Source of the DNA: a virus
Lineage: Duplodnaviria; Caudoviricetes
DNA: 64,000 nucleotides
Strand: one strand, 5' to 3'
Virus record (IMG/VR): IMGVR_UViG_3300043104_000334
Under the pieces are notes generated by a model, which saw nothing but the letters and a program-made list of their open reading frames with translations, was not told where the DNA came from and searched no databases. Shown in pieces: positions 16,893 through 39,680 of this stretch; the first letter of the stretch is position 1; every line of letters starts with the position of its first letter. Made by a program: the position numbers and the translations under genes.

Positions 16893-17306
16893 TTATTTCC
16901 TCCTGTCAACGAGATACATCTCACTCATAAAATTATCCTCCTCAATCAGAAGAAAATCATATAAAGCACCGTCCTCAAGGTCTTTAAAGCAAACAGTACT
17001 CTTGCTTAAACTAAACCCTATGAACTGCAACGTTTTGAATGAATCTTGCAATTCCAGTTTGTAATCACAGATTACACGCAACATCCAAACCGGAATTTCT
17101 AATTCCATTGTCTCAGCATTTATGATAAGATCACGTAGCCCGAACATATCTCCCATAGGCTCAGGTGACTTCTTTCTTTTTCTTTTGTCTTTCATCACAA
17201 GTGCTGTTACACCACTTACCATTGTTACCATTGCTGTTACAAAAACTAGTTTTTTGTTCTTCATAAAAATTTCCATCCTTACTTTATTTGTGTTTCCATT
17301 GAGCAT
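16893..17306 (-). CDS. Membrane-anchored hypothetical protein (start probably MKNKK)
   Basis: Hydrophobic segment followed by a basic patch. Confidence 0.6.
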   Translation of the reverse strand: MLNGNTNKVRMEIFMKNKKLVFVTAMVTMVSGVTALVMKDKRKRKKSPEPMGDMFGLRDLIINAETMELEIPVWMLRVICDYKLELQDSFKTLQFIGFSLSKSTVCFKDLEDGALYDFLLIEEDNFMSEMYLVDRRK

Positions 17307-19023
17307 ATAGCTTTATTGTTTTGTTGTTCTTTGTAGTTAAATTCTTTATCTTTGTTTCATCACTGTAGCTTATACCTGTACCATCCGCTTTAGTGTTCCA
17401 ACCAATAAATATGTAGTTCTTTCTAGTAAAGCTGCATGTAGGTAATCTATATGATTTTCCATACTTGCATACTTTGCTACTCATCGTTCCAGAACCACTA
17501 TTTGAATAAAATTTTATTTTATACGTATTTGGCATCCATTTCGCGTATAGTATATAATTCTTCTTTTTATTCTTTTGTATCTTAGTGACAGCCTTTGTCA
17601 AATCTTTGTCACTATACCATCCATCAAATGTGTAACCTAAACGTTCAGGCACCAACAATTTTGAGCCGGTAGATGGTAGATAATATTTAGTCTTACTCCC
17701 ATTATTGCTACCATCATTCATGTTATATTTTATTTTATAAGCACGTTCTGCAGATGTGATGCTACTATTTAGCTTGCCTTGTGTTGCTGCAACTGCCCTA
17801 ACCTTTGTATAATCGGTCACCGTAATCTTTCCACTATAAATGTAGGATTTACTACTCGCTACACTTGGAGTTGTTCCGTCGGTTGTATAATATATGATTG
17901 AATTGTTAGTCTTACAAGACATGGAAATACTATAACTAGTAATAATCTTTTTACCAGTCTTAGTGTCACTACTGTACACGGGAATAGCCTTTATTGTAAC
18001 ATTCTTTGTAACATCTGTTACTGCTGACAATGTACCAACATCATATTCATAACTATCTGTATCCATAGTACACTCAGGTAAGTACCCATCCCAATAAGAC
18101 AACGCTGTGTGATTCTCAACAGTATCTTTATACTTGCTATAGGCATAATCACTTCTTGCAAAATAAGTATAGTATGGTTCATCTTCTGATTCTTGATCAT
18201 CAAAAGTACAATCAACATTATACCATGAGCCATTCATTAAAACCTTATTCCACTCATGATTATACCCTGTTACAGATATACAGTCTACACCAATTGCATT
18301 ACACAACATTTCAAATACATGAGCATAACCAGCACACACAGTGCTATTAAAGCAAAGTGCACTATACGCACTTTGTGTTAAGTATATGTCATCCTTTTCA
18401 TTGTCTACCATTTTGTTTTCATCAAGCACATCATGATTGTATGTTATGTTTTCGCAAACTAAATCGTGTATTGACTTAACAGTATTTAAAACATCTGTAG
18501 TATCAATTTCGATCTCATTAATCCATGACTCGATAGCGTCTTTAAATAAAGCTGTAGCTTCAGCACGTTCAACACCATTTGCAAAACTACTATAGGACAC
18601 TAAGTAAATTCCATTGTGATTATCAAGATGCCCTGTCAGCACTGATGTCTGCAAATAGTAATATTGTGGATTAGAATATCTGAACATCCTTTCAACAAAT
18701 ACCTGTTGCTCTAATGTAAGTTCATCAGAATATATAAAATCAGAAATATAACGAGAGTTATATTCTGTAAAGTCCTTATTCGTATTCATGTATGTTAAAC
18801 ATAAGTTATTCAGCCTATCCCAGAAATCACGCTCAGGTTCATCAAGTTGATTGTAGAAATAGTATGTGGAAAATTTGTCCCAATAGGATGTATATGTTTC
18901 AGCCCGTTTAAATGTATTAACATACTGTATGTTTGTGCTACTACTCGCATATGCTATATTTGAACTACTAGTCAATGATAGCATTAGTACAAGTATTAAG
19001 CACTTCTTCAAATTTAAAAACAC
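17284..19023 (-). CDS. Secreted transglutaminase-like protein with FN3/chitobiase-like and InlB B-repeat (Listeria-Bacteroides) domains; start revised to GTG 19023
   Basis: VCAGYA, HEWN, VDCTFDD catalytic triad; IYYTTDGTTP; GYTFDGWY...LYAKW and FIGWNTKADG...LYAQW repeats; AAGGGAG RBS. Confidence 0.85.
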   Translation of the reverse strand: MFLNLKKCLILVLMLSLTSSSNIAYASSSTNIQYVNTFKRAETYTSYWDKFSTYYFYNQLDEPERDFWDRLNNLCLTYMNTNKDFTEYNSRYISDFIYSDELTLEQQVFVERMFRYSNPQYYYLQTSVLTGHLDNHNGIYLVSYSSFANGVERAEATALFKDAIESWINEIEIDTTDVLNTVKSIHDLVCENITYNHDVLDENKMVDNEKDDIYLTQSAYSALCFNSTVCAGYAHVFEMLCNAIGVDCISVTGYNHEWNKVLMNGSWYNVDCTFDDQESEDEPYYTYFARSDYAYSKYKDTVENHTALSYWDGYLPECTMDTDSYEYDVGTLSAVTDVTKNVTIKAIPVYSSDTKTGKKIITSYSISMSCKTNNSIIYYTTDGTTPSVASSKSYIYSGKITVTDYTKVRAVAATQGKLNSSITSAERAYKIKYNMNDGSNNGSKTKYYLPSTGSKLLVPERLGYTFDGWYSDKDLTKAVTKIQKNKKKNYILYAKWMPNTYKIKFYSNSGSGTMSSKVCKYGKSYRLPTCSFTRKNYIFIGWNTKADGTGISYSDETKIKNLTTKNNKTIKLYAQWKHK

Positions 19024-19207
19024 AGCATACTCCCTTTCGCTATTTGCAGTGCTCATATAATATAAACAATCTCTAATGAGCACTGTAATAGTCAGTTGAA
19101 CAGTCAATGCCTATTCCGCATAATGTATACGAATATTACTGTGAATACACCAGAGAATATCGTTATAGCAATATCCAGAATAGTATTGATTGTATGTAAA
19201 CATTCTA

Positions 19208-19651
19208 TCATTTTAACATCTCCACAAATGTTATAAGATATTGAATCCTATCGTGAATAGTAAATCTATTACGATAGAAAAAGTGACATATAAGAATAGC
19301 AATTAAAATAGACATCATAATATTCTCAGATTTTGTAATCTTTAATTGCTTTCCTAAAATCCATGATATCCATGTTCGTATCACTATGATTCCAATAATT
19401 GGTGACATTATAAATAAAGCAGCATTACTGCTATATGCTGTCTCCCAGTCAAAGTGAGCCATAGCAATTAACATATGACTCACTCCACACCCTGGGCATA
19501 ACAATCCAGTTATCACATTAAACAAACATGGTATCCCAATATTAAATTTTGATACCGTAATCGCCTGTAATGACATTACAATGCATAAGCATGCAGTAAG
19601 TAACAGCCGCTGCTTCGGTGACTTAAGCCGTAGCGTTTGCATTGAGCTCAT
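19208..19651 (-). CDS. DUF2752 family membrane protein
   Basis: GIPCLF..ITGLLCPGCG.S motif. Confidence 0.85.
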   Translation of the reverse strand: MSSMQTLRLKSPKQRLLLTACLCIVMSLQAITVSKFNIGIPCLFNVITGLLCPGCGVSHMLIAMAHFDWETAYSSNAALFIMSPIIGIIVIRTWISWILGKQLKITKSENIMMSILIAILICHFFYRNRFTIHDRIQYLITFVEMLK

Positions 19652-19958
19652 TCTGCATAATGCAGTAGTTCACAATACCAAGACCGAAAATGGCAAGAAT
19701 CAAGAATAAGATGGTATTGTTTCCACCCTTGATGCTGTCCATCTTTACACCCATTTTGTAATTCCAGTACCACCCATAGATACCGCAGGTGATAATAGTA
19801 AACAGGAATGCTTTCCCTCCGGTTGTCTGATAGTCATCATCCGGTGTAAGAGTATTCATGTCATTCGTGATACATACGAACCAATAGATTCCATAGATAC
19901 CACACGTGATGATACTCAATATGATCTGCACTACAATGTTACGATTTTTAATTTCCAT
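19623..19958 (-). CDS. DUF4234 family membrane protein
   Basis: Duplicated IITCGIY..YW motifs. Confidence 0.85.
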   Translation of the reverse strand: MEIKNRNIVVQIILSIITCGIYGIYWFVCITNDMNTLTPDDDYQTTGGKAFLFTIITCGIYGWYWNYKMGVKMDSIKGGNNTILFLILAIFGLGIVNYCIMQNELNANATA

Positions 19959-20034: not shown

Positions 20035-20397
20035 TTATAATTCGATTGTAAATAACTCGTTAGTTGATAAGATACCGAATGTGTATGTATTCTCATCATA
20101 ATCGTCAAGATACAGTGTGTCATCTGATATATTGTTTTCGATACAATATTCATAGCACCTTTCTGTAAGAATATCGAGAACACTCTCAGATAAACTTTCA
20201 GTGTCAATGATGCTTACGCTAATGTTACTAAGCGACAGCACATTATCTTCATGCGAGAAACCATCCTCTTGTATCACTGAATCCTCTGTATCGCTTACAT
20301 AAGATTCATATTCAGCAGAAGATTTCTTGCTGTACAGATATACACACAGTATCATCATAACAACCACAAGTAAACATAACAAGACTTTCTTCTTCAT
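20035..20397 (-). CDS. Cassette 4 partner: small membrane-anchored acidic protein (putative immunity/adaptor)
   Basis: TM then EYESYVSDTEDS; 8 bp downstream of the M15 gene. Confidence 0.7.
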   Translation of the reverse strand: MKKKVLLCLLVVVMMILCVYLYSKKSSAEYESYVSDTEDSVIQEDGFSHEDNVLSLSNISVSIIDTESLSESVLDILTERCYEYCIENNISDDTLYLDDYDENTYTFGILSTNELFTIEL

Positions 20398-20405
20398 AAT
20401 TCACC

Positions 20406-21425
20406 TCAATGATTAAACACTGAGAAGTGCATTGGGTCACATGAACTCTTTCCCCAGTTACCTCTCCAGTATAATCCGTATTTTTCAAATATTTGCATTA
20501 TTGTACACCCCTTATATATGCAAGTGTATTTGTACTGGTTATCAGTCAGCTTGGACCAATTCTCATAAGACCTTGGATATGGTCTATCAGACGAGCCATT
20601 GTTTGTATTCCAATTCCAAGATACCTCATTTCCTTTTTGGTCACTATAGTTTATATCTATAGTACCACCATACGAATGAGTTGAAGTTGAATGACTGCTG
20701 CTAGAATTATTCATCTCTCTTACACAATATCCACCAGCAACAGTAATCACAGGTTGATCAGCGCTTTCATATATCTCTTTAAAAATCTGCTTTATGATAG
20801 GTTGCAATGTAGTACAACACTGAACATTTATTGTAGCCGATACCTTAGTAAGATCTGTACTCGTCGGATTAGGGTTTGCCCATTGCCAAACATCAACCTG
20901 AATAGAACTCATAGCCTGACTATTCAAACTCCTAATGGTACTACCAGTTATACTATCACCTTGCCACTGTTTCAAGTCTGAATACGTATATGATGAGTTT
21001 GGATATAACAATGCAAATACTGCATTACAAGACTTTGTACTTCCACTACTACTACCAGCAGCTTGAGCTGTTTGCACAGCAGCTAATAACTCATTCAAGT
21101 CTGTTGGAACATCTGCAGATATTGTTGCTGAACCTGTTGAACCAATTGAACTAGCCAAATTATATGAACCTGATGCCATTTCGTCAGCATCATCCTCTGA
21201 CATACCAATAGACAAGGCTAAACTTGTGTCCCCAGTTAGACCTGTATAGGACTGTACAAATATAAGATTCTTAGATAAACCTGAAGTACTATCAGGTTTA
21301 ATAGAGTCATACGTTTCGAGAATGCTATCATTTGATGATGTACCAATAAGCAGATATATAGCAACCACAAACCCTATAAGAGTTACCAAGAATCTGAACA
21401 GTTTAAATAATGATTTAGTATTCAT
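20406..21425 (-). CDS. Cassette 4 hydrolase: type-B N-terminal anchor plus M15-family peptidoglycan peptidase
   Basis: KPDSTSGLSK...SYTGLTGDTSLALS shared with 21846 gene; GYCVR, STHSYGGTIDIN, DPMHF Zn-peptidase motifs. Confidence 0.82.
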   Translation of the reverse strand: MNTKSLFKLFRFLVTLIGFVVAIYLLIGTSSNDSILETYDSIKPDSTSGLSKNLIFVQSYTGLTGDTSLALSIGMSEDDADEMASGSYNLASSIGSTGSATISADVPTDLNELLAAVQTAQAAGSSSGSTKSCNAVFALLYPNSSYTYSDLKQWQGDSITGSTIRSLNSQAMSSIQVDVWQWANPNPTSTDLTKVSATINVQCCTTLQPIIKQIFKEIYESADQPVITVAGGYCVREMNNSSSSHSTSTHSYGGTIDINYSDQKGNEVSWNWNTNNGSSDRPYPRSYENWSKLTDNQYKYTCIYKGCTIMQIFEKYGLYWRGNWGKSSCDPMHFSVFNH

Positions 21426-21459
21426 AGTGTCTCCTTATAGAATTTGTAAATGCGAAATG

Positions 21460-21843
21460 CTAATTTCTAAATATTGTATAGTACAAGTTTTCCTCTGCGT
21501 CATACAAGATATCCTGCTCCTTATCACCAATCAAGCACTCAATTGTTTTTGTATCTTCATCAAAAGAAACAAAGGTACAGTTACTCCAATCAATTGCTTC
21601 ATCCGGAAATGTGTTTATGAATACTTCAAGATATTCCGGATCGATTGCACTGACTGCATCTTCATTGTTGACGAATACTTTATTTGATGTCATCTCAGAA
21701 ATAGCGACACCGTCCTCCGAATCATAGGATTCAGTGTCATTTTTAATATATTGTTCATAACTTGCATCCTTACTCATTAGTATGACAACAACAGCGCAAA
21801 CTAATACAATAGTAGTAATGAGCAACGGAATTATTTTCTTCAT
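21460..21843 (-). CDS. Cassette 3 partner: small membrane-anchored acidic protein
   Basis: TM then SYEQYIKNDTES; 2 bp downstream of the C39-like gene. Confidence 0.7.
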   Translation of the reverse strand: MKKIIPLLITTIVLVCAVVVILMSKDASYEQYIKNDTESYDSEDGVAISEMTSNKVFVNNEDAVSAIDPEYLEVFINTFPDEAIDWSNCTFVSFDEDTKTIECLIGDKEQDILYDAEENLYYTIFRN

Positions 21844-21845
21844 GC

Positions 21846-22775
21846 TTACCCAACCTTTCTTATTACCCAGTATCCCTTGAAATGATAATTGTATCCTTTG
21901 TGGGATGTTGCGAGGTTTCCGCTGGAGTCATATAATGGATAGTCATAAGTACTCACTGTATCATACGATACGCTGAGATGATTCTTTGCCTTAGTAGAAC
22001 TATCTGCTACATGAAATGATTTTCCATCATCACTCAAATCAGTTATACAAATTATATGACCACCATCAGTAAATAATCCACTACTTGAACTGACAAGGAT
22101 AGCAGTATTAGCATCACCCGCATATTTTTCAATTGCTCGCATTACAACTGAACAACCCACTGTGCTCGATGAATACTCAACCATTTCATATGTGCCATAT
22201 GTTCCTTTACTATTTAGTTCCGTAACAAATGTTGTTGGACCATCCCAACCCATACCATTTGAGTTACCCCACCCAGCTCTTACAGTACTAGGGAATTGAC
22301 TTTTGAAATCTGGTGGAGAAATAATTGTTCCGGACAACTCAGCTATAACGAATGTCATACTACAAAGTCCACAGCCATTATTACTAATATTACCACTTGG
22401 CCCAAGTGATGTACTAGCATAATTTGATTGTTGTACCTGATAATGATTATGATTAGAACTATCATGGGGTGAATTACCTGCAGTGTCATTTGCATTCTTA
22501 CTCACTGAACCATAGGTGCCCGCAGCCATTTCTTGTGCATCAGATTCTGATACACCAACCGATAAAGCAAGACTTGTATCTCCTGTAAGACCAGTATACG
22601 ACTTTAGGAAAACAAGTGTCTTAGATAATCCTGAAGTACTATCTGGTTTAAGAGAATTATACGTTGCAATTATACTACTATCCGATGATGCACCAATCAT
22701 AAGATACACAGCAATAACAAATCCCAGTATTATCATAAGGAATTTAAATATCTTTGCTAATATCCTACCACGCAT
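21846..22775 (-). CDS. Cassette 3 hydrolase: type-B N-terminal anchor plus C39-like cysteine peptidase
   Basis: Q...GCGLCSM, GGHIIC, VADS papain-like triad; N-terminus paralogous to 20406 gene. Confidence 0.78.
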   Translation of the reverse strand: MRGRILAKIFKFLMIILGFVIAVYLMIGASSDSSIIATYNSLKPDSTSGLSKTLVFLKSYTGLTGDTSLALSVGVSESDAQEMAAGTYGSVSKNANDTAGNSPHDSSNHNHYQVQQSNYASTSLGPSGNISNNGCGLCSMTFVIAELSGTIISPPDFKSQFPSTVRAGWGNSNGMGWDGPTTFVTELNSKGTYGTYEMVEYSSSTVGCSVVMRAIEKYAGDANTAILVSSSSGLFTDGGHIICITDLSDDGKSFHVADSSTKAKNHLSVSYDTVSTYDYPLYDSSGNLATSHKGYNYHFKGYWVIRKVG

Positions 22776-22783
22776 AATTCCTC

Positions 22784-23842
22784 CTATAATCCAGATGTGT
22801 AATAGTACTTATAGAATATATATCTAAGCACATGTGATATTGTATAGTTGCCTTTGTTGGTTCTGCCAACGCCACCATGATAAGATGAGAAATCGATTCC
22901 TGTAATATTCTCAAGTTGTGTTACATAAGTCTTAACGTTGATATCGTCTAAGGTTATCTCTCTGTTATAAGCTTTCTCCCTAGCATCAACAAACATCTGG
23001 TATCCTACCTGATATATTGCATCTTGTACGTCTTGTCTGTTAATAACGTTAATAAGCTTTTTACCGAAGTCATACGTAATAAGTGCACATCCTTGCTGAG
23101 CTAAAGCCCAACAAGCATACACCGTAATATCACTAATAGGGTCAATTCCACAATTTATCCATGTAGTACTATATTGCCTAAGCGATGTTGTATAACTCCA
23201 AATAGGATTAACTCTATTATCTAAATGACTTTCATCCCAGTCATATGTAGTTATCTGGAATGGACCAACACCAAGTCCTGTCATAGCAGACGTTACCCTG
23301 CTTCCACTTCTAGGGGATTGCAATAACGCCACCGGAATACGATAACATTTGCCATCCTCGTTTGTATTGTAATTGGACTCAGTGTTTGCCATATACCAAG
23401 CACTGTCTACCTGTTCAAGATTTTTGGTAAGAGTAATCCAATCAATTTCCTTGTTATAAGTAGCTGGATTAAAATCCATTACATTTGTTAGACTGATGCC
23501 TTTATAGTCGGAATCAATTTCACCCCACATAGTAGCAAGGGCCATGCATGGGTTAATAGTTTCCAAAGCCATCTTATACATAGCAGTATTCTTGTCGCCG
23601 TATATTTCCTTAAGAGTCTGCGAATTAACACTCGCTAATGAGTAGTAAATGTTTTCATCAACTGTTGTAAGGTATTCACCAAACACATCATCAATAGCTA
23701 CAACAGACTGTGTTGTAAGCGTAACCTTATTGACAGTACTCTTAGTACTCGTATCAGCCACAGCTTCGTTAGGCTTGATACAAGCACACACAAGCAACGC
23801 TAACACTTGTATTACAACAAATAATTTGACTACTTCTTTCAT
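22784..23842 (-). CDS. Secreted protein, possibly lysozyme-like fold
   Basis: Signal/TM; ATMWGE and GLGVGPFQIT resemble lysozyme/transglycosylase motifs. Confidence 0.45.
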   Translation of the reverse strand: MKEVVKLFVVIQVLALLVCACIKPNEAVADTSTKSTVNKVTLTTQSVVAIDDVFGEYLTTVDENIYYSLASVNSQTLKEIYGDKNTAMYKMALETINPCMALATMWGEIDSDYKGISLTNVMDFNPATYNKEIDWITLTKNLEQVDSAWYMANTESNYNTNEDGKCYRIPVALLQSPRSGSRVTSAMTGLGVGPFQITTYDWDESHLDNRVNPIWSYTTSLRQYSTTWINCGIDPISDITVYACWALAQQGCALITYDFGKKLINVINRQDVQDAIYQVGYQMFVDAREKAYNREITLDDINVKTYVTQLENITGIDFSSYHGGVGRTNKGNYTISHVLRYIFYKYYYTSGL

Positions 23843-24954
23843 TATAAATCATGCTCCGTAAAATACTTATAGATAGCATTTGCATATTTAAGACGCTTAC
23901 TACCACTACACGAACTCTGTACGAGGTAATACTTATTACCGGACTTACTCCACTGATCTTTGCAGTTCTTGTAATTCTCATATGTAATTGCTACACGACC
24001 AGTAGCATCCTCTATTGTTGTTGCGTCATAAATATTGTCAAATACATTATAGACTTTTAATTCCTCAATAATCATACAGCACTCAGCTGTAATCATAGTG
24101 GCTTCAAAGTCACTTGGGAACTGTTCATTTGCAAGCTCGTAGTACTCGAGCAAGGATTGCTGTCTTCTTGAATAAGTCCATTGTACACAGCCATACCCAT
24201 ACTTTCCACCACGACAGGTATCCCTAACCTGCTCCATATTTGTACTGCATTCATAGGAACCTTGCTTCATTGCGAAACACCCCTCTACGTAAATGTTCCC
24301 TAAGATACCAGCAGCATTCTCAGCAGGAACACCTTGTTGATTTACCAAGAAATCCCATAAGACTGCAATGGTGTTAATCTTATCTTTACAATCCCAATCA
24401 GGGGTTTCGTATTCAGTATTGTAAATCTCAACAAGTCTCTCAGTGTTAATGTTTACAGGTTCACTGTCATAAAGTGTACATCCACGGTCCTCAAGTTTTA
24501 TACTTCCGATAATAACTGAACTATCATAATAAGGAGAACTGAGAACATCATTCTCTTCATCAATAATTGTAGCCAGCTCATTCAGGTTAACCGTGCCAGA
24601 CTTAGCATCTTCATTATCAAGAGCTTTTACTTCGGTATCCCTAAGTTTGTAGAATGTACTAGATACACCGGCAACAGGAATATCAGATACACTGTTAAGT
24701 AGTTTAGCCTCACTGTAAATATTGATAAGGCGCAACGATACCCCTGCCGTTGTTTCTGCAGATTGACTTACCTCAATAAGCTCAATTACATCAGTGCCAG
24801 AGTCATCACACAAATTGTATAAATCACTTAATGAGGCAAGACTGCTACAGAATACATAAAGGTTCAACACAAATATCAACACGATAATCGTGTTACCAAC
24901 CTTTGCCAACGCGCTTCCATGTTTCATTACTACATCACTCAGTTTCTTAATCAT
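23842..24954 (-). CDS. Membrane-anchored phage-tail-lysozyme (Phage_lysozyme2)-domain protein
   Basis: AAGILGNIYVEG, GYGCVQWTYSRR, R..YA..IY. Confidence 0.8.
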   Translation of the reverse strand: MIKKLSDVVMKHGSALAKVGNTIIVLIFVLNLYVFCSSLASLSDLYNLCDDSGTDVIELIEVSQSAETTAGVSLRLINIYSEAKLLNSVSDIPVAGVSSTFYKLRDTEVKALDNEDAKSGTVNLNELATIIDEENDVLSSPYYDSSVIIGSIKLEDRGCTLYDSEPVNINTERLVEIYNTEYETPDWDCKDKINTIAVLWDFLVNQQGVPAENAAGILGNIYVEGCFAMKQGSYECSTNMEQVRDTCRGGKYGYGCVQWTYSRRQQSLLEYYELANEQFPSDFEATMITAECCMIIEELKVYNVFDNIYDATTIEDATGRVAITYENYKNCKDQWSKSGNKYYLVQSSCSGSKRLKYANAIYKYFTEHDL

Positions 24955-24986
24955 CTTTTCGATTCTCCCATCTTTTCGATTTGATT

Positions 24987-25412
24987 TTATTCTTCAGCAT
25001 AGCTTCGATAAATAGTGCTAAGCATTTTCATTGCAGTCTCATTTAAGAACGTTCCTGCATCATAGTCAAACACATAATCGAAGTTGTACGTGAATTTGTT
25101 TCCATTATACATGGCAGATACAATAGGTTGCCCACCCTGCAACTTAGCCCGAACTTTCATAAGAGCAATACCAACGAAGTTCTTTGCAATCTTATGTTTG
25201 CACCGTTCACAATAGCAACATCCAAGCATCGAGTCATGTATGTGTGTCGAGTCATAGACAAGCATAGACTCACCGGTTTCGAGAAGTTCATTCCGATACT
25301 TTTCGTTACCAAGACACTTAAGGTAAACTACCCTAATAATGTCCTTGACATTTGTGTACTTGTCAAACTCACCATCATGAACCAATGTTTTACTTACTTT
25401 AACTATGTTCAT
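24987..25412 (-). CDS. N-terminally truncated or degenerate NADAR-like protein
   Basis: K....LLETG..MLV.....D..LG......NFVG.ALM.VR..L matches the NADAR C-terminal half. Confidence 0.6.
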   Translation of the reverse strand: MNIVKVSKTLVHDGEFDKYTNVKDIIRVVYLKCLGNEKYRNELLETGESMLVYDSTHIHDSMLGCCYCERCKHKIAKNFVGIALMKVRAKLQGGQPIVSAMYNGNKFTYNFDYVFDYDAGTFLNETAMKMLSTIYRSYAEE

Positions 25413-25423
25413 CAGATCCTCCT

Positions 25424-25822
25424 TTAATAATCATATTTATCACCTGCATTGACTGTAAGCTTACCATCAGAATCAATTGTGATAGAGTACATTCTACTAT
25501 TATAATAGAACAATGCACTATACCCATTTTCCTCTGTGTAGTACACCCAATTACACTCAGCAGCTACATCATAAGGGATACCATAGACTTCAAGAACTTT
25601 CTCATTTTCTGTAAGCACACTCGCAATGAAATTATCATCCGCATCCGTTGTACTTGTGATGTCAATCTGATTAGCCTCAGTGTCTTCTGCTACATAATCA
25701 GCATACTGATTTCTCTGCTTCGATTGATAAACCCATAAAGCAAAACAGATAGTCGCAAATACAAGAAATACGATGATATCCCTTATTACTTTTGTATTCA
25801 ATCTAATTTCTTTACGTTCCAT
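25424..25822 (-). CDS. Cassette 2 partner: small membrane-anchored acidic protein (start revised to MERKEI)
   Basis: AAGGAG RBS; TM then QYADYVAEDTEA. Confidence 0.7.
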   Translation of the reverse strand: MERKEIRLNTKVIRDIIVFLVFATICFALWVYQSKQRNQYADYVAEDTEANQIDITSTTDADDNFIASVLTENEKVLEVYGIPYDVAAECNWVYYTEENGYSALFYYNSRMYSITIDSDGKLTVNAGDKYDY

Positions 25823-25836
25823 ATTTCCTGTTCTCC

Positions 25837-27105
25837 TTACTTTAATATATTCTCGTACACAAATATTGCTATACCACACCGCTTCTCCCAGCCACCAATT
25901 TCTTCACGTTCGTCATAACTAACCTGACTTGCGCAATAATGTGTCCTGCCGCGTTTGTACTGAGATTTAAGTGCACACCGCTCATCCTTACTTGCAAAAT
26001 AATATGTAGCCTGTTCAACACTATTGGCATTTTCATTAAACGTTTTAGCATCACTTGCCTGATAACTAGCTTTCATATACGTCAATATATATTCACATTG
26101 AAAGTTTGCATCGTACCACTGTACTCCTTTATCAATTGCCGCTTGAACTATTTCCTTTGCAGTTCCTCCATCCCACTGTAATACACCTATCGCTTTGCCA
26201 TTCTTAAAATCACCAGTTATCTTATTATTAACTATTTTAGCAGCTCCTCCACTCGCCCAATTAACTACTTCCTCATTTGACATTGGGCCATTGCTGCTAG
26301 GTGTTTCTTCTGCACCTTGTCTACATCCCATATAGTACCCACACTCAGCATAGAAGTTACCAAGAACCCCGGCTATAGCATTTTTATTATATCCAGCAGC
26401 AGCTAACGTATTTGTGACAGCTACCATATTTTTTATTAAATCTGTCGCACCGTCTGGCGCTACAAGCAGTGACGTCATATAATCCTGACCGTTATCATCT
26501 ACTGTAGCACCATGTAACGTATTTGTTTGATACAACCCAGGATATTTACTATCCCAATTTGTATTAGTAAATGAAATTGTTATAGGGTCTCCTGTAAGTC
26601 CAGAGAAATCACCAACGCCAAGACTTGTACCACCTGATGAAACAGTTGATGAAGAACTGGTACCGGCTTCCGCAGTAGCCATATCAGCATCTTCCTGCTG
26701 AACATCACTGCTCATAGTAAGCGTAACAGTTGTTGTGCCATCAGCATTTACTGTCACGTAAAATAACTTTTTATCAAATCCATTCTTTGAATTGCTAACA
26801 CGAGCCGTAAGAGACGTATACTGGTCTACAAGTTTGTCCAATGAGACATTGGCGGACACAATAAGGTATATTGTTATGACTACAATCAATCCAACAACTA
26901 CTAAGCTGATAGTCGGATTAAATAATATAAATGTCAGTATACTAGGCTTATGCTTTGTTGGACCTTTTTCAGCTATCTTAGCATCCCTAGCAGCCTTTCT
27001 CGCTTGTGCTCTCTTTTCCCACTTTGAATAAACCTTTACAGACTCGGTTATTGTCTCCTCACCGTGGTCAGTCATGGTAGTGACTTGTCTCATTTCATAC
27101 TTCAT
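25837..27105 (-). CDS. Cassette 2 hydrolase: type-A N-terminal anchor plus phage-tail-lysozyme domain
   Basis: KNGFDKKLFYVTVNADGTTT...QQED..ATAEAGT shared with 27911 gene; AIAGVLGNFYAEC, IGVLQWD. Confidence 0.8.
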   Translation of the reverse strand: MKYEMRQVTTMTDHGEETITESVKVYSKWEKRAQARKAARDAKIAEKGPTKHKPSILTFILFNPTISLVVVGLIVVITIYLIVSANVSLDKLVDQYTSLTARVSNSKNGFDKKLFYVTVNADGTTTVTLTMSSDVQQEDADMATAEAGTSSSSTVSSGGTSLGVGDFSGLTGDPITISFTNTNWDSKYPGLYQTNTLHGATVDDNGQDYMTSLLVAPDGATDLIKNMVAVTNTLAAAGYNKNAIAGVLGNFYAECGYYMGCRQGAEETPSSNGPMSNEEVVNWASGGAAKIVNNKITGDFKNGKAIGVLQWDGGTAKEIVQAAIDKGVQWYDANFQCEYILTYMKASYQASDAKTFNENANSVEQATYYFASKDERCALKSQYKRGRTHYCASQVSYDEREEIGGWEKRCGIAIFVYENILK

Positions 27106-27113
27106 ATTATCAC

Positions 27114-27464
27114 CTATTTATTCAGCAGACTACGGTACATTATCTCTAATGTAGTAAGCCTTCTGTTGTCATCGACTGATGGATTTACAAACGTACTTGG
27201 TGAGTATGTAACAGCATCTAAGAATCCATTCTTAGAGATAGACCTGACAAGCGCTGATGCTGTTTCTTCATTTGTAACAATACAAATGTCAAGCGCTTCA
27301 TCATAAGCTGCGATAAAATGTACAACAGCCGGAAATGTATAATCGGACACTTCTTCCAACTTACATGTGTCATCGTAGACCGTAAGCTTTTTGTTTATGT
27401 ACACACCAGAAATTTCATAAGCCGCTAATTTCTGCGTATCATCATTCCTTAATAGTATTCTCAT
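27114..27464 (-). CDS. Hypothetical protein
   Basis: 116-aa ORF with RBS between cassettes 1 and 2. Confidence 0.7.
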   Translation of the reverse strand: MRILLRNDDTQKLAAYEISGVYINKKLTVYDDTCKLEEVSDYTFPAVVHFIAAYDEALDICIVTNEETASALVRSISKNGFLDAVTYSPSTFVNPSVDDNRRLTTLEIMYRSLLNK

Positions 27465-27485
27465 ATAGTTGCCCTCATCCCTTAA

Positions 27486-27914
27486 TTATTCTGCATTAGT
27501 GAGTTCGTTTATTGTATCAGAGTCGCCAATATATTCATCATCGACATATAGCATTGCATAGAACTTATCATCAGTTATCCAGAAACTAGCATATGCATCG
27601 TTATCAAAGATTAGCATACCGTTTACTGTATTATCATCGTTGCTTTCTCTAACATTAGATATTTGCACAAATGAGTATCCATAAAGTGAGCTAACATTGT
27701 TTATGAAGTCACTAACATCCTGTCTGCCTTTTATGGAATCAGCCTCTAAACTATCGTAATAATTGAATGTGTCTGTTGTGCTGTCTTCACTTGATATGTA
27801 TGCATCATATGTATTTTTATACTCACAATATTTGTGGTAGCATATGACTATAGCAATTATATTAAGTACCATAAGGATACCCAATATAACTAGACTCTTG
27901 TACTTGTCTTTCAT
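27486..27914 (-). CDS. Cassette 1 partner: small membrane-anchored acidic protein
   Basis: TM then TYDAYISSEDST; ATGA overlap with upstream gene. Confidence 0.7.
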   Translation of the reverse strand: MKDKYKSLVILGILMVLNIIAIVICYHKYCEYKNTYDAYISSEDSTTDTFNYYDSLEADSIKGRQDVSDFINNVSSLYGYSFVQISNVRESNDDNTVNGMLIFDNDAYASFWITDDKFYAMLYVDDEYIGDSDTINELTNAE

Positions 27915-28777
27915 ACGTAAGACCCCCTGACTATCTTTACAATCTTACCCTTCCATTCTGGATGGCATACAGATGTTCCAGGATTACCGTGCCATGAACC
28001 TGTACCACTTGGATACCATGTAGGAACACTTGTATTGTTTTTGTTTACGAGAAACTCTATTGTATTCATAGTGTCTGCACTCGCTTCATGTCCCCATACT
28101 GTCCAGTTGCTATCACCACTACTTTTTATTTCACCCACTACACATGGTATTATTACAGTGCCATTAGACGTCTCAACATAAACATCAATTGTCTGTCCGA
28201 CATCAGCTATGCCACCATTATCAATCCATGATACTGCAACAACATACCTACCATCAACGACACCAAACCCTTCATCATCAAAAGCTGTTACATCACCGAT
28301 CGTACTATCCCAATTAGGATATTTACTTTTTCGCCATATGTACTGTGGGGATGATTGACTTGTTATCATCTGCCAACCCATATACGTATAACAAAACTTG
28401 CTGTAAGGACAGCTACTAAAGTCTATTGTATCACCATCTACGATAAGTTTGGTGTCACCTGAACTAGATTCAGTAGTACCAGCTTCCGCAGTAGCTGTAT
28501 CAATATCTTCCTGTTGTATATCACTACTACTTGAGGTAAGTGTCAATGTTGTAGTTCCATCAGCATTTACCGTAACATAGAATAATTTCTTATTAAATCC
28601 ATTCTTTGAACTAGTAGGCTTACTCGTCAATGACGTGTACTTTTCGATTAGAGTGGAGTCTTTCACCTGTATGGAGCAAACTAAAGCAATATATGCAGCT
28701 CCTAATATTAAGACTAATAATACAAGCCTTATTAAAATAGGAGACACTTTATGCTTTCCATTATTTTGATTATTCAT
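27911..28777 (-). CDS. Cassette 1 protein: type-A N-terminal anchor plus putative double-psi-barrel (3D/RlpA-like) wall-lytic domain
   Basis: Shared type-A N-terminus; TYM..IT..SSPQY, DGRYVVAV, G..IDV, IPCVVGEIK, IEFLV; domain call tentative. Confidence 0.55.
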   Translation of the reverse strand: MNNQNNGKHKVSPILIRLVLLVLILGAAYIALVCSIQVKDSTLIEKYTSLTSKPTSSKNGFNKKLFYVTVNADGTTTLTLTSSSSDIQQEDIDTATAEAGTTESSSGDTKLIVDGDTIDFSSCPYSKFCYTYMGWQMITSQSSPQYIWRKSKYPNWDSTIGDVTAFDDEGFGVVDGRYVVAVSWIDNGGIADVGQTIDVYVETSNGTVIIPCVVGEIKSSGDSNWTVWGHEASADTMNTIEFLVNKNNTSVPTWYPSGTGSWHGNPGTSVCHPEWKGKIVKIVRGSYV

Positions 28778-28848: not shown

Positions 28849-28869
28849 ATAGGGAGAAATTCTCCCTAT
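28849..28869 (-). terminator. Hairpin overlapping the VirB4-like stop codon
   Basis: ATAGGGAGA-AAT-TCTCCCTAT. Confidence 0.5.
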
Positions 28870-30950
28870 GAACCGGACATAACATTTTTCTCTTTTACCG
28901 GTGTATTTACTTTATACTTCTTAAACTTGCCATCATCGTTCTTTTCAACCTCGACCTGAATAATAGGATAAAGATTCTTGTTCTGCATATTGTTAATAAA
29001 CACAAAACAGTTCTTGTACCTGTTTGAACTTCCGGGTATCTTTATGTGGTCCTCGAGATGCTTAAGCCCAAACTGCTCAATAACAACTTTACGTGCATCA
29101 AGCGTAAGCTCACCAACAAACAGTCCTCTTGTATTTTCAATAAGAGGCTTGGCAATTTCACTATTCTGCAATGCCTGTACTGAATTACCCAAGAGCAAGG
29201 TATCCTGATTCTGTGACCGTCTAAGCGTATACTCCTGAACGTACATCTTCATGATTTCATCAGAAACAACCTGTGACTCTTCAAGTATTTTAAATGTACG
29301 CTTACCCTCAGCATACTTTCTTGTTGTGAACTCACCATTAAGCTTTGACATATACAGAAACTTAAGTCGGAATAAATCCTCATCAATGTCTGAAATTGTT
29401 GCATCTCCAAGGATACCAAAGTCAAATGCTAATGTGTCACTGTGCAGGATTTTGGCGTAATCAAACTCACGCTTAAACACATAAGACTTTGAACCTGTTG
29501 CAGACATAAACATCCTGAGTGTTCCGATAACAGTCTTATGAATGTTATACTGAGCACGCTTCTGTGGAGTAAGGTATTTCTCAAACCTATCAAACACTTC
29601 ATAAGGATTCAACGATTCCGTTGTGTTCCATGAGTTCATGTTTGTAGGTATCGCACCAATCGAGATGTACAATGTATCCAAGAATTCATCAAGCAATTCT
29701 TCAAGTTCAAGAAGCGTTTCTCTATCCCGAACACCAGATAAGATAATCATCTGTTCCTTTGAGAACTTTACTCTTGATTTGAAATAGGCTTCTGCATTAT
29801 CCTGCGATGTATCTTCCTTGTGCATAACGAAACTGTTGATATACTCAGTTGACATAGGACGCAATGATACTGTATAGCCATTTGTAGCGTTGATGAAATT
29901 GGTATACTCATTACCTTTAATATCCATCATAACACAAGCAGAACCATTTTCATAAGCTGACTGTGCCATATTCATTGCGAGGACAGTCTTACCAACACCT
30001 GATGGCGCTACACAATACATATTACGTGCAACAGTTATCTCACTAAAGTCAATATAGTAAGGCGTACCATTAAGCACATTCTGTCCGACATAATATCCTG
30101 TCTTATCGTTGTATGAGCCGCAGTTGGGAACAATCTGTGACAAAATGACATTTGTTGTCATAACAGGTGTTGTACCCTTGAGGTCATAGTTCTTTCCACC
30201 AAACATTGAAATGTACTCAAGGTCACTACGAATAGAACCATGTGCTGGCATATAGATACATCCCATGGAACCAAGCATATCGAAGATAATCTTCTCTGCG
30301 TTGTTAAGGGTTTGAATATCTTTAGCCCGAACAATAAGGTACATTCGAGTGTTCTTCAGTTGTTTGCCAGACTCAGCAACTTTTACTGTATATAGACACC
30401 TCGCTGACCTTTCACGCATTCTCTTTGATGTAAGGTCAGAATCAAGGTTATTTTCCCACATGTTAATACGACTTTTTAAACCGGAATTATTAGGGTCATA
30501 ATCATAATTACTATTCTTGAATGTTGCATCAAGTATAGCTCGATTGCCCCTATCACGAAGAGCAGAGTTAAGCACTCCTAAAAGTGTAATAGGAGTGCTT
30601 GTTCCCAACTCATAGATTTGTATGATTGTTGACATGTACAGCTTTGTAACATACATGTTATTCGTAATAAGAATCCTGTCTCCGATGTTATCTGGAATCT
30701 TACCTCTGTCTTTCATCGTAAGACTAACGAGATAAGAAATCCACATCTTCACCCATAAGAATCTATCGGGCTTTACTTTGCCCTCATTACGAATCTCAGC
30801 AGCTTTCCTAACTGATTTCCGTATGTTCTTCTGAGTCTTTTCTGCGTCTACTTCGCCATACTCGTCATAGGCAACCTCAACTTTAGAAGCCTCTTCAATG
30901 TTATTACTCCTCTGCTTTGAGTCAGCCTTTAACTCATCCCTAAGCGCCAT
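28866..30950 (-). CDS. VirB4/TraE(TrsE)-like conjugation/T4SS ATPase (start revised to MALRDEL)
   Basis: RNMYCVAPSGVGKT Walker A, MDIKGNEY, IN motif, ILEESQ Walker B variant; about 700 aa. Confidence 0.8.
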   Translation of the reverse strand: MALRDELKADSKQRSNNIEEASKVEVAYDEYGEVDAEKTQKNIRKSVRKAAEIRNEGKVKPDRFLWVKMWISYLVSLTMKDRGKIPDNIGDRILITNNMYVTKLYMSTIIQIYELGTSTPITLLGVLNSALRDRGNRAILDATFKNSNYDYDPNNSGLKSRINMWENNLDSDLTSKRMRERSARCLYTVKVAESGKQLKNTRMYLIVRAKDIQTLNNAEKIIFDMLGSMGCIYMPAHGSIRSDLEYISMFGGKNYDLKGTTPVMTTNVILSQIVPNCGSYNDKTGYYVGQNVLNGTPYYIDFSEITVARNMYCVAPSGVGKTVLAMNMAQSAYENGSACVMMDIKGNEYTNFINATNGYTVSLRPMSTEYINSFVMHKEDTSQDNAEAYFKSRVKFSKEQMIILSGVRDRETLLELEELLDEFLDTLYISIGAIPTNMNSWNTTESLNPYEVFDRFEKYLTPQKRAQYNIHKTVIGTLRMFMSATGSKSYVFKREFDYAKILHSDTLAFDFGILGDATISDIDEDLFRLKFLYMSKLNGEFTTRKYAEGKRTFKILEESQVVSDEIMKMYVQEYTLRRSQNQDTLLLGNSVQALQNSEIAKPLIENTRGLFVGELTLDARKVVIEQFGLKHLEDHIKIPGSSNRYKNCFVFINNMQNKNLYPIIQVEVEKNDDGKFKKYKVNTPVKEKNVMSGS

Positions 30951-31042: not shown

Positions 31043-31657
31043 TCATAAAGCTTCATCAAATTCTTTAATGTCTAAGTTGCCAGCCAGAATATGATTTCCG
31101 CCGACCCAAGAACTTCCATGAACTTTCACGTTTTCAGATAAACGTGCAAACTCATGTATTTGGGCGTCTTCAGAAACTTCTGCATTGTCAGAAACCTTAG
31201 CATAATCGTACACCCATGCATAGCCGGATACCTTTGCATTACCGGATACTTTTGCATGTCCAAACACAGCAGCGCCATCTGACACGACTGCTGAACCATA
31301 GACATGTGCATCACCGTCAACCAGTGTCTTGTCTGTCACATGTGCAGAATCACTGATGTATGCACTTCCCCATACTCTTGCATCACCATCAACACATCCA
31401 CCGGAAATCATAGCTTTACCACGTACTTCCGCATTACCAGCAACTATAGCATTGTCAAATACTGTTGCAGACTCGTAGACCCAGCAGTTTCCACTCTGGC
31501 TGAGATTACTTGGCGACTCAATGTATCCGCCTATATCCCCATCCATAACGTCTTTGAAATTCTTTACCGCCTGAATCTGATAGAGCGTACGATTGCCAAT
31601 TGTCAAGGTTCTGTCCTTTAATAAAACGTACTTGATATCTCCACTAATTTTACTCAT
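31043..31657 (-). CDS. LbH hexapeptide-repeat protein 11 (no N-terminal tag)
   Basis: GDIGGYIES..NLSQSGNCW plus hexapeptides. Confidence 0.9.
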   Translation of the reverse strand: MSKISGDIKYVLLKDRTLTIGNRTLYQIQAVKNFKDVMDGDIGGYIESPSNLSQSGNCWVYESATVFDNAIVAGNAEVRGKAMISGGCVDGDARVWGSAYISDSAHVTDKTLVDGDAHVYGSAVVSDGAAVFGHAKVSGNAKVSGYAWVYDYAKVSDNAEVSEDAQIHEFARLSENVKVHGSSWVGGNHILAGNLDIKEFDEAL

Positions 31658-31779
31658 TGCTTTGTACCTCCACTGTACAATAATTGCTATTACGTTATCA
31701 TTATTTCCTTATCATTTATATATGCTCATTTTGGTATATACCTTTCAGTAGCATAAATTATTTTTGTGAGTTCCTGCTT

Positions 31780-32772
31780 TTATTTCTTAAGTGTATTCTC
31801 GTAAAATGCCTTAGCTGCATCCTCATGCTGCTTATAACCACTGAAGCTGAAGAAATAGGATGGAATCATCTCGTATATCATTTCCTTTTGCCAAGGTGTA
31901 AGACTGCCAAAATTCTTGTCCTCGAATAGTCCATGTACAATTGTGCATACTACACAGTCGTAAGCTTTTCTATCAGGGTACTTATCGTACTTATGATACC
32001 GCTCACATATTGTCTCATACTTACACTGTTCAAAGTAAAGCTCATCGTAATCACAGGTATCACCAGGCATTTCAAGGACACAAGCACACTCAACGATATA
32101 TAGATTCTTATTATGCAATCCATTAATAAGCGATGCTACGTGTGCATCCTTATTTAAGGATAACAGTCTCTTCGCACGTTCCATTCCGTCCGAAAGTGTT
32201 CTAGGTGATACCAACTTGATAAGCTCACTTCTACCAATCAACTTGAGATAATTCATGAACGCTATATGCTCTTTAGTCACGTAATTTGATAGGTCATGCT
32301 CCGGAGCAACAATGATATATGTTGGATCATTAACTATCTTTGTAGAACCACTGGGCGGGTACGCTGTAAAGATAAGTTCTCTTGTACCAGTCATCTCTGG
32401 ACAATTGATAAGTCTTCCACCATTAATAAGCTCCACAACAGGATACTCCTCATAATTGTAAGCACCAATCGAGAAGTTTTCGTTTTTGTTAATGAACATA
32501 ACCTGTGTTCCATCGATAATGATCTTCTTAAGCTTGTTACTAGGGGACTCCGACCACCGACCATAAGACAATCCATCATTTGTCTCCGGTCCGATACAAG
32601 GCTGTCTGCTCTCTCCATATATTGTAAGTGCACCACCACCAAATATCTTAATGACTTCTGCATTACCAGTGTAAATTGGACCTACCTTCACTTGCTCTCC
32701 GAACGTATTATAAGTCATGACTTTACCGTCGATTGCACTGGCAGCACCTAAAAGTGTATTCATACTTGACAT
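31780..32772 (-). CDS. Non-LbH hypothetical protein carrying the array's N-terminal tag
   Basis: MSSMNTLLGAASAID then unrelated sequence. Confidence 0.8.
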   Translation of the reverse strand: MSSMNTLLGAASAIDGKVMTYNTFGEQVKVGPIYTGNAEVIKIFGGGALTIYGESRQPCIGPETNDGLSYGRWSESPSNKLKKIIIDGTQVMFINKNENFSIGAYNYEEYPVVELINGGRLINCPEMTGTRELIFTAYPPSGSTKIVNDPTYIIVAPEHDLSNYVTKEHIAFMNYLKLIGRSELIKLVSPRTLSDGMERAKRLLSLNKDAHVASLINGLHNKNLYIVECACVLEMPGDTCDYDELYFEQCKYETICERYHKYDKYPDRKAYDCVVCTIVHGLFEDKNFGSLTPWQKEMIYEMIPSYFFSFSGYKQHEDAAKAFYENTLKK

Positions 32773-32805
32773 AGCTGTTTACCTCCATTTAACTATAATC
32801 AATCC

Positions 32806-34284: not shown

Positions 34285-34288
34285 AAGT

Positions 34289-35014
34289 TTACCTCCATTT
34301 ATCATTTACATATTCACAAATATCAGTGTCACCATGAATACATTCAGGTTCATTAATTTTAACATTACCATGAACTCTAGCATTACCGCACACTAGTACC
34401 TGATTACCTATATCTGCGTTGTCATAGACCTGAGCCTTGTCACATACAGTACCAGTTACTATAGCATTGTTATAAATTTTAGCATCATCATGTACCTTAG
34501 CCATACCACGGACTTCAGTGCCACCATAGATTTTAACCCTGCCGCTAACTACTGCTGTTCCATGAACCTCAGCATTATCATAGATTTTGGCTTCCCCAAA
34601 AATCTTAGTAGAGTCATAAACCCGCGCAGAATTAAAGACTTGAGCATTACCGAAGACTCTAGCGTCATGACAAACTTGAGCATTATCATATATTTGAGCT
34701 TCATCAAATACCTCAGCATGTTCACTAATTTCAGCACCATCATAAACTCTAGCTTTACCCCAAACTTTAGCATTATCGAATACCCAACAATTCCCTTCCT
34801 GAGAAAGATTAGTTTCACTCTCAACAAATCCACCTAATTCACCGATTTTAATTTCTGAGTCCATACCCCATTTAATACTCTTTAAAGCCTTTATCCTATG
34901 AAGAGTATGACCAAACATTTCGCATGTTTTATCTGTAAGTTCATATTTCTTATCTGATTCCTTATTAGTATCAACCTTTCCAGCTGCTCTCAAGAGTTCG
35001 CTTATATCATTCAT
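34289..35014 (-). CDS. LbH protein 9 (start revised to MNDISE)
   Basis: Head domain plus hexapeptides. Confidence 0.9.
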   Translation of the reverse strand: MNDISELLRAAGKVDTNKESDKKYELTDKTCEMFGHTLHRIKALKSIKWGMDSEIKIGELGGFVESETNLSQEGNCWVFDNAKVWGKARVYDGAEISEHAEVFDEAQIYDNAQVCHDARVFGNAQVFNSARVYDSTKIFGEAKIYDNAEVHGTAVVSGRVKIYGGTEVRGMAKVHDDAKIYNNAIVTGTVCDKAQVYDNADIGNQVLVCGNARVHGNVKINEPECIHGDTDICEYVNDKWR

Positions 35015-35055
35015 AATTTTCTCCATCCTACTTCATAGATTTATTGCTGTTTTGG

Positions 35056-35080
35056 GGGGTTGGATATTGCACCCAACCCC
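35056..35080. terminator. GC-rich hairpin between LbH genes
   Basis: GGGGTTGG...CCAACCCC. Confidence 0.5.
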
Positions 35081-35095
35081 AACAGGTTTACTTAA

Positions 35096-35953: not shown

Positions 35954-35992
35954 ATCAAATATACTCCTTATCTCGATTTTTATTTTTAACTG

Positions 35993-36649: not shown

Positions 36650-36662
36650 ATTACTTGACCCC

Positions 36663-37205: not shown

Positions 37206-37241
37206 AGTATCAATCCTTTCTACATCATACATTCAGTATAC

Positions 37242-38057: not shown

Positions 38058-38130
38058 AATTCACCTCACCTAATACTCTAACGATACCACAAACTATAGG
38101 AACATAGCTAAATCAGCATTTGAACACACT

Positions 38131-38766: not shown

Positions 38767-38791
38767 AATTTCTTACCTCCATTTATTATAT

Positions 38792-39640: not shown

Positions 39641-39666
39641 AATATTTTATCTCCATATTTCTCAAA

Positions 39667-39680
39667 TATTAACATATTAA
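39667..39680. promoter_or_regulatory. 14-bp motif TATTAACATATTAA, copy 1 of 3 (also 43540..43553 and 61049..61062)
   Basis: Exact copies, all at or in intergenic gaps. Confidence 0.4.

Follow-up and report, generated by a model that had tools for sequence, protein, structure and literature searches.

Polymorphic toxin-immunity loci and the VirB1-type hydrolases of Gram-positive conjugation are among the described systems closest to the locus reported here, which lies at positions 20,035 to 28,777 of the IMG/VR virus record IMGVR_UViG_3300043104_000334. The whole stretch of 64,000 nt that was analysed is called the window, and gene coordinates count from its first letter. The locus holds four two-gene cassettes, each made of a predicted membrane-anchored cell-wall hydrolase and a small acidic membrane protein, its partner. 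The hydrolases are named A1, A2, B1 and B2 after the two types of their constant N-terminal part, the N-module. In related elements, this part is joined to different catalytic domains, and the catalytic domain can be exchanged in one block with the partner gene.

In polymorphic toxin-immunity systems (PMC3482391), including the LXG toxins (PMC5555719), a constant N-terminus is recombined with unrelated C-terminal domains at a sharp junction. A small downstream gene is exchanged with the C-terminal domain, and several cassettes are found per locus. The present locus has these features too. Its constant part is different, as it consists of a transmembrane (TM) segment and an ecto-module of about 55 aa that belongs to no known family and is not a recognised T5, T6 or T7 trafficking domain. 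Moreover, the repertoire seemingly comprises wall enzymes only, and the locus lies in a VirB4-type operon.

The VirB1-type hydrolases of Gram-positive type IV secretion systems (T4SS), such as PrgK of pCF10, TcpG of pCW3, TraG of pIP501 and CwlT/Orf14, combine an N-terminal anchor with an extracellular peptidoglycan hydrolase, as is predicted here. Their genes also lie just 3' of the VirB4 gene, and glycan- and peptide-cutting activities are likewise combined. PrgK, a TM-anchored hydrolase of several domains, restrains its muramidase through additional domains of its own. It also binds a small TM protein, PrgL, which is encoded by the adjacent downstream gene and probably directs PrgK to the T4SS (PMC11323569). 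Both traits would be likenesses to the partner-bound enzymes proposed here. In contrast, two or three domains are fused in the VirB1-type proteins, whereas here the domains are found in separate proteins with a shared adaptor, each with its own partner. The families differ as well (SLT, CHAP, NlpC/P60 and LytM versus lysozyme2, DPBB-like, C39-like and M15 here), and only the present cassettes recombine.

The killing T4SS of Xanthomonadales also uses modular wall-degrading proteins, the X-Tfe effectors, with adjacent genes for cognate X-Tfi immunity proteins (PMC6759196; PMC11253643). The X-Tfe proteins, from diderm hosts, carry their soluble recognition domain, XVIPCD, at the C-terminus. In the window hydrolases, the conserved part is N-terminal and membrane-spanning, the host is monoderm, and the C-termini are variable, with no conserved XVIPCD. 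Phage tail-associated lysins are related at the level of domains. The A1 domain is 38-46% identical to their N-terminal domain, and A2 as well as another lysozyme of the window carry their PF18013 domain. In phages, these domains belong to virion proteins and are fused to NlpC/P60 or ELLD, whereas here they are grafted on a TM adaptor. Three things are new: the combination of polymorphic-toxin recombination logic with a VirB1-type gene position, the adaptor module, and the family of partners. No database has a name for any of them. No description of these elements, of the N-module adaptor or of the partner family was found in the literature.

Exchange of catalytic domains and partner genes

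The architecture of a polymorphic enzyme with a cognate partner, which the initial annotation had proposed, is well supported by comparison with related loci. The DNA of two of them, L049 and L050, matches at 97.2% identity over 14,368 bases and at 96.7% over the next 6.5 kb. Between these matching flanks lies a block of about 1 kb without detectable match. It starts 156 codons into the hydrolase gene, just past the N-module, and ends just after the partner gene. In L049, the block encodes a lysozyme2 domain and one partner; in L050, it encodes a domain of C-terminal cluster 5, to which no identity was assigned, and a different partner. The replacement of both as one block, at 97% DNA identity of the surroundings, shows that catalytic domain and partner form a functional unit.

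The N-module family confirms the modularity on a larger scale. A 16-sequence profile was searched against 1.84 billion representatives of clusters at 50% identity, and 198 clusters matched with E-values up to 1e-3, of which 72 had values up to 1e-10. Among the 198 matches, the 150 listed all have the module at the N-terminus, and the proteins mostly measure 260-520 aa. Iterated hidden Markov models of the module drifted onto the partners via the TM segment. The C-terminal regions of the best 143 of the 198 matches fall into 13 BLAST clusters, with 44 members (lysozyme2), 26 (Cys..HW, partly alignable to the C39-like group), 26 (NlpC/P60-like, RCCS...GHV), 15, 7, 6 (M15), 6, 5 (C39-like) and further small groups; the A1 domain is a singleton. 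GDSL esterases combined with Hydrolase_2 or with lysozyme2 add to the types. Judged by Pfam and by motif, each identifiable type is a cell-wall-active family, in agreement with the earlier view that the C-terminal domains are directed at the wall. Constant parts with 90-100% identity occur with different C clusters (e.g., P0136 and P0137, 100% over 114 aa), and for 83 of the 143 representatives the nearest neighbour in the constant part belongs to another C cluster. When two C clusters were aligned with hhalign, the similarity stopped exactly after the 87 columns of the N-module.

The module itself consists of the TM segment, a helix with an invariant Tyr and a short beta-hairpin-like stretch (consensus ..Y.sL....SK..F.KkL.F......G..tL), and a low-complexity linker comes next. 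The module matches no family in Pfam, NCBIfam or PHROG, and hence no recognised trafficking domain. Amino-acid identity between A1 and A2, and between B1 and B2, is 70-85% in the module and falls to noise past the linker. The DNA of these paralogs is 63-65% identical over the first 300 nt, which makes them old paralogs and not recent duplicates. A weak pattern shared by types A and B had been pointed out before. With the TM segment removed, hhalign aligns the two ecto-modules over 51 columns (probability 94.7%, E 5.6e-8), and homology of the two types is now probable. In the long type-A proteins, the TM segment is preceded by a conserved cytoplasmic tail, M[KR]YE..VT..T..GG.E..TE..PVY[NS][KR] (A2 residues 1-51, window 26953-27105). 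The tail is near-identical on proteins with different catalytic domains (A2, P0131, P0132, P0135 and P0140) and may be a docking or recognition peptide.

The partners are as regular as the modules in their position. Across 51 loci, a small, net-acidic open reading frame (ORF) with a single TM segment directly follows 32 of the 39 N-module genes, compared with 62 of 759 ORFs overall. Several of the N-module genes that lack a partner call reflect faults of ORF calling. The check proposed at the outset, a search with N-module models for homologs with other C-terminal domains and adjacent small genes, thus returned about 13 C-terminal types and a small gene in 32 of 39 cases. The partners resemble each other in the TM segment and a juxtamembrane [YF]xx[YF] motif and in little else. 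In all nine pairs whose partner ectodomains show detectable similarity, the adjacent hydrolases are of the same catalytic type, which for the ninth pair is judged from Pfam; much of this match may be simple orthology. In the M15 cassettes, partner identity is 29-32% versus 60-61% for the enzymes. Extra partner-like genes follow a cassette in four loci (L005, L006, L010 and L072). In the window, no orphan C-terminal domain or immunity cassette was found.

A second hot spot was found in elements that are 94-97% identical. There, a TM-anchored lysozyme of about 600 aa follows directly after the ATPase (L052:12223-13745, compared with L053 and L009). Its first 80 residues are 95-100% identical and the rest 31-56%, and no small partner is adjacent.

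Enzymes and partners of the window

All four cassettes are present in the window as first described, and the spacing within the pairs A1, A2, B1 and B2 is -4, 14, 2 and 8 bases. The genes of the cassettes are as follows.

27911..28777, minus strand: A1 hydrolase, 288 aa; TM segment and type-A N-module (about 28475-28750), S/G/T linker, tail-lysin-type domain, plausibly a double-psi barrel
27486..27914, minus strand: A1 partner, 142 aa; N-terminal TM segment, juxtamembrane YxxY[IV] motif, net charge -16; overlaps A1 by 4 bases
25837..27105, minus strand: A2 hydrolase, 422 aa; conserved cytoplasmic tail, TM segment and type-A N-module (about 26659-26952), linker, Phage_lysozyme2 domain (PF18013; C-domain cluster 1)
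25424..25822, minus strand: A2 partner, 132 aa from ATG; TM segment, net charge -11; gap of 14 bases, gene call in L001 and L002
21846..22775, minus strand: B1 hydrolase, 309 aa; TM segment and type-B N-module (about 22506-22763), linker, C39-like Cys/His peptidase domain (PF13529, below cut-off)
21460..21843, minus strand: B1 partner, 127 aa; TM segment, net charge -18; gap of 2 bases
20406..21425, minus strand: B2 hydrolase, 339 aa; TM segment and type-B N-module (about 21156-21413), linker, M15_4 metallopeptidase domain (PF13539)
20035..20397, minus strand: B2 partner, 120 aa; TM segment, net charge -18; gap of 8 bases

Each partner has one N-terminal TM segment and a net charge between -11 and -18, as expected from the first description. 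The GTG start given there for the A2 partner, at 25879, is probably too long. The metagenome gene calls use an ATG, and the gap of 14 bases is counted from it. The hydrolases have one hydrophobic segment within the first 10-75 residues, followed by the hydrolase domain, which suggests that they are type-II membrane proteins.

Two of the four catalytic assignments made earlier hold without reserve. The C-terminal domain of A2 is a phage-tail-type lysozyme (PF18013, Phage_lysozyme2, 1.5e-19, 71 bits versus a gathering cut-off of 28.2). B2 carries an M15 peptidase domain (PF13539, Peptidase_M15_4, 2e-10, 41.5 bits versus a cut-off of 25). Its zinc and catalytic motifs, SxHxxGxxxD and DxxH, are intact and invariant in seven relatives, and its ortholog in L007 is 53% identical. 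The assignment of B1 as C39-like is backed by Cys135 (GCGxxS) and His240 (GGHII), invariant in five relatives, but the score against PF13529 (Peptidase_C39_2, 5.2e-4, 21 bits) is under the cut-off of 24. One member of the B1 family, P0268, clears it with 27.3 bits.

The fourth assignment, a double-psi barrel in A1, is plausible but not secure. The domain matches no Pfam family. It is related to the N-terminal domain of the tail lysin of Eggerthella phage LE1-1 (37.7% identity, E 1e-22), and 26 relatives were found in IMG/VR and five in genomic records. A structure of the A1 type in the Atlas has TM-scores of 0.66-0.73 to a domain of phage lysins. An AlphaFold2 model of the domain, made with 17 sequences, reached a predicted local distance difference test score (pLDDT) of 64 and a predicted TM-score of 0.68; the full-length protein modelled without an alignment was unusable (pLDDT 38). 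Foldseek found no match to the domain model in the PDB at E 0.001 or below. In an exhaustive VIA-align comparison, nearly all of the top 50 were double-psi-barrel proteins, but every Z-score was at most 4.3. Among them were expansins (Z 4.3), barwin, cerato-platanin, five MltA-type lytic transglycosylases (Z 3.0-3.4), Cel45 and designed double-psi barrels.

Sequence and profile searches of the PDB with the ATPase, A1, B1, C-domain clusters 2, 3, 4 and 8, and a 352-aa protein of the window gave nothing significant. PADLOC returned no match, and PHROGs returned lysozyme-type matches only. The predicted cleavage targets differ between the enzymes: the lysozyme and tail-lysin types would cut glycan strands, the M15 and Cys peptidases peptide stems.

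The surrounding element

All credible genes between 19 and 31 kb are on the minus strand. They are transcribed in the order ATPase, A1 and partner, a 116-aa protein, A2 and partner, a NADAR-like protein, a further lysozyme with the 352-aa protein, B1 and partner, and B2 and partner. Promoter and terminator scans remained at chance level. The count of four cassettes was correct, but a fifth TM-anchored lysozyme with the 352-aa protein and two unrelated small genes between the cassettes had been overlooked. The genes outside the pairs are the following.

28866..30950, minus strand: VirB4-like P-loop ATPase, 694 aa from ATG (the ORF reaches a TTG at 30974); PF19044 2.9e-7
27114..27464, minus strand: soluble acidic protein of 116 aa without family, between cassettes and outside any pair
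24987..25412, minus strand: NADAR-like protein, 141 aa, no TM segment; PF08719 4e-8, 34.1 bits versus a cut-off of 35.1
23842..24954, minus strand: core TM-anchored Phage_lysozyme2 protein, 370 aa; PF18013 3e-19
22784..23842, minus strand: secreted protein of 352 aa, next after the core lysozyme; orthologs in six loci

The NADAR-like protein is probably unrelated cargo. The core lysozyme (70 bits against PF18013, with the same gathering cut-off of 28.2) and the 352-aa protein form a pair that is conserved in all related elements examined. Orthologs of the lysozyme are 30-48% identical in L004, L005, L006, L007, L009 and L010. Those of the 352-aa protein are 43-62% identical in six loci and always follow the core lysozyme. 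In the 352-aa protein, numerous Trp, Tyr and Gly residues are invariant and a GLGVGPxQIT stretch is present; no Pfam or PDB profile matches the protein. An SLT-like motif considered in this protein was likewise unsupported by these profiles.

The ATPase is VirB4-like in that VirB4-type models alone match it among NCBIfam (VirB4_plasma 1.6e-11, CD1110 VirB4-like 6.6e-9, VirB4_CagE 5e-5), but its scores of 20-43 bits are far under the cut-offs of 325-643. Neither IMG/VR nor a set of 50,697 phage records contains a relative, and a plasmid search retrieved only a Chryseobacterium TraG with 25% identity. More than 248 homologs, 52-85% identical, lie on contigs 150-290 kb long. Scanning metagenomes yielded a further 42 loci, some of them from the human gut, in which the identity of the ATPase is as low as 31%. 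One homolog lies in a metagenome-assembled genome of Lachnospiraceae. The identical A1 protein is found in 17 metagenome contigs, which reach lengths of 200 kb. The source is taken to be an uncharacterised mobile element of about 200 kb from gut or rumen Firmicutes. The 'Hodor' gut megaplasmids (PMC12934698) are comparable in combining a T4SS with a surface module, but they exceed 300 kb, and RNA polymerase goes unmentioned in their description.

The position of the hydrolases 3' of the ATPase is retained in relatives whose ATPase is 33-85% identical. The backbone of these relatives comprises a giant secreted multi-TM protein of about 1950-2170 aa, genes of about 300, 408 and 375 aa, the ATPase, the variable stretch of cassettes, and the core lysozyme with its neighbour of about 350 aa. 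A sortase and a giant Cna_B protein are found further on. In the window, the part upstream of the ATPase (43694-59896) encodes secreted proteins of 1800 aa and 1946 aa with C-terminal multi-TM regions, a 515-aa membrane protein, a 319-aa protein with two TM segments, and soluble proteins of 408 aa and 374 aa. This backbone is syntenic in relatives with an ATPase identity of 52-81%, and its proteins match no Pfam family. Between the gene of about 375 aa and the ATPase, about nine YdcK-type beta-solenoid paralogs are encoded (31043-43394). The array is absent from L006, L009 and L010, in which the ATPase directly follows the gene of about 375 aa, so that a lineage-specific insertion or expansion inside the machine operon is indicated.

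The M15 cassette is syntenic across distant elements. Elements with an ATPase identity of 33-38% keep the same architecture with a different N-module (..FDRT.VTT). For instance, L072:13662-21690 (ATPase 38% identical) encodes four TM-anchored paralogs of 309-502 aa with this common N-module; behind each come one or two TM proteins that are very acidic, with a net charge of -22 to -41.

A few neighbouring genes were recorded in passing. Directly 3' of the last cassette (17284-19958), DUF4234 and DUF2752 membrane proteins and a 607-aa transglutaminase-core protein with Listeria-Bacteroides repeats are encoded, in the same order as in the identical metagenome contigs. Fic-domain proteins, one of them fused to DUF5131, recur between ATPase and cassettes in other elements (L004:3342-3974, L005:18523-19956 and L049:12521-13111); in the window, none lies between ATPase and cassettes. 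On a short contig, the N-module lysozyme P0136 directly follows an FtsH-like AAA+/M41 protease (L087:1425-4249), a neighbour unlike that in the window.

Roles of the cassettes

We tentatively favour regulated wall opening at a T4SS-like machine, with the partners as cognate regulators, over interbacterial killing, although this reading falls somewhat short of even confidence. The stretch would be the wall-cutting module of a T4SS-like envelope machine. Each hydrolase would be a type-II membrane protein with one TM segment, the ecto-module, the linker and one catalytic domain, preceded in the long type-A forms by the conserved cytoplasmic tail. The constant part would serve as an adaptor and tether the enzyme to the membrane, probably at the site of the machine. 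Read most simply, the block exchange points to a partner that lies, like the enzyme, on the outer side of the membrane and binds the enzyme specifically, as an inhibitor or 'immunity' protein. Its ectodomain would bind the cognate catalytic domain and restrain the enzyme, keeping the cuts local and sparing the carrier cell from lysis. Recombination just past the N-module would swap catalytic domain and partner together. The resulting sets of enzymes would vary by element and would perhaps be fitted to the wall chemistry of donor or recipient.

The lean towards wall opening is due to the predicted membrane anchor, the repertoire made up of wall enzymes and the fixed position in the operon. It is strengthened by the length of the anchor-like hydrophobic segment, the charged cytoplasmic tails, the giant secreted multi-TM proteins encoded upstream and the PrgK/PrgL precedent. 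Several points weigh against it. Swapping of a domain together with the neighbouring gene is the signature of antagonistic toxin-immunity loci, and we know of no housekeeping T4SS hydrolase that does so. To our knowledge, four to five hydrolases exceed the need of any conjugation system. The ATPase is only distantly related to VirB4, and family scans of the window found no VirD4, no relaxase and no recognisable VirB6 or VirB8. Furthermore, no inhibitor family was matched when the partners were compared with Pfam, PADLOC and the Atlas. A search of the Atlas with one partner gave scores of 0.81 or less and TM-scores below 0.5; that the partner tail is PepSY-like is at most a conjecture. Predictions of a complex between the ectodomains of B2 and its partner, with 0.01, 0.60 and 0.01 in the runs, speak neither for nor against binding.

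The alternative of an interbacterial weapon is rather unlikely on the present evidence. The hydrolases would be polymorphic antibacterial effectors, brought out by the N-module as a new trafficking module for the VirB4-type machine or released by signal-peptidase cleavage. The partners would be immunity proteins on the outer side of the membrane, shielding the carrier and its kin. A constant N-terminal part with a swapped C-terminal domain and a block exchange that includes the downstream gene is indeed the definition of polymorphic toxin systems (PMC3482391). The faster divergence of the partners in the M15 cassettes and the extra partner-like genes in four loci are in keeping with immunity proteins, and the conserved type-A tail could be recognised by a cytoplasmic ATPase. 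In Xanthomonadales, a T4SS delivers wall-degrading effectors that have immunity proteins (PMC6759196), and in Firmicutes the surface-acting toxin TelC has an immunity protein with a signal sequence, TipC (PMC5555719).

On the other side, the long hydrophobic segment, which in type A follows 50-80 charged residues, resembles an anchor and not an export signal. The M15 cassette, syntenic across distant elements, behaves like a part of the core. Nucleases, deaminases, ADP-ribosyltransferases and pore-formers dominate true polymorphic toxin families, and none of these is found among the approximately 13 C-terminal types. Moreover, we know of no T4SS killing system in Gram-positive bacteria. It is a bold and rather improbable proposal that the locus represents the first polymorphic effector-immunity system on a VirB4-type machine in monoderms. 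Tail, TM segment and ecto-module would then be a new trafficking domain, by which giant elements deliver interchangeable wall enzymes to neighbours, and the acidic TM partners would provide surface immunity.

A role of the partners as targeting or assembly factors, which would bring the enzyme to the machine or keep it stable while it is exported, is improbable. The co-variation would follow if help in folding is domain-specific, and the binding of PrgK to PrgL is a precedent (PMC11323569). A conserved Tyr-containing motif just outside the TM segment is also common to partners and N-modules. Nonetheless, a docking factor is expected to follow the constant N-terminal part and not the variable C-terminal domain. 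A VirB8/NTF2-like domain would need an ectodomain longer and less variable than that of the partners, and the partners have no family match. A derivation of the partners from truncated N-module paralogs was also considered and rejected; hhalign aligns only the TM segment and one Tyr (probability 62%). Very improbable, finally, is a module for lysis or egress in a giant virus-like element, with several signal-anchored endolysins and small membrane regulators that lyse the host for release: two phage-type domains, Phage_lysozyme2 and one common to podophage tail lysins, would fit it, but the ATPase has no relative in the phage records, the partners, with one N-terminal TM segment and a large acidic ectodomain, are unlike holins or spanins, and the surroundings consist of sortase, Cna_B pilin and VirB4-like genes.

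The analysis defines an unannotated protein family of 198 clusters without a database name. It also offers a rule that can be tested: the membrane adaptor is constant, the wall enzyme can be swapped, and the partner is swapped with it. The conserved backbone with its variable hot spot can be used to classify widespread elements of 150-295 kb from gut, rumen and bioreactors for which phage and plasmid databases have no entry. Should the partners be specific inhibitors, they would constitute a new set of peptidoglycan-hydrolase inhibitors across several enzyme classes. If the enzymes are weapons, T4SS-mediated killing would extend to Firmicutes. If they serve the machine, they would show how a transfer apparatus adapts to different Gram-positive walls.

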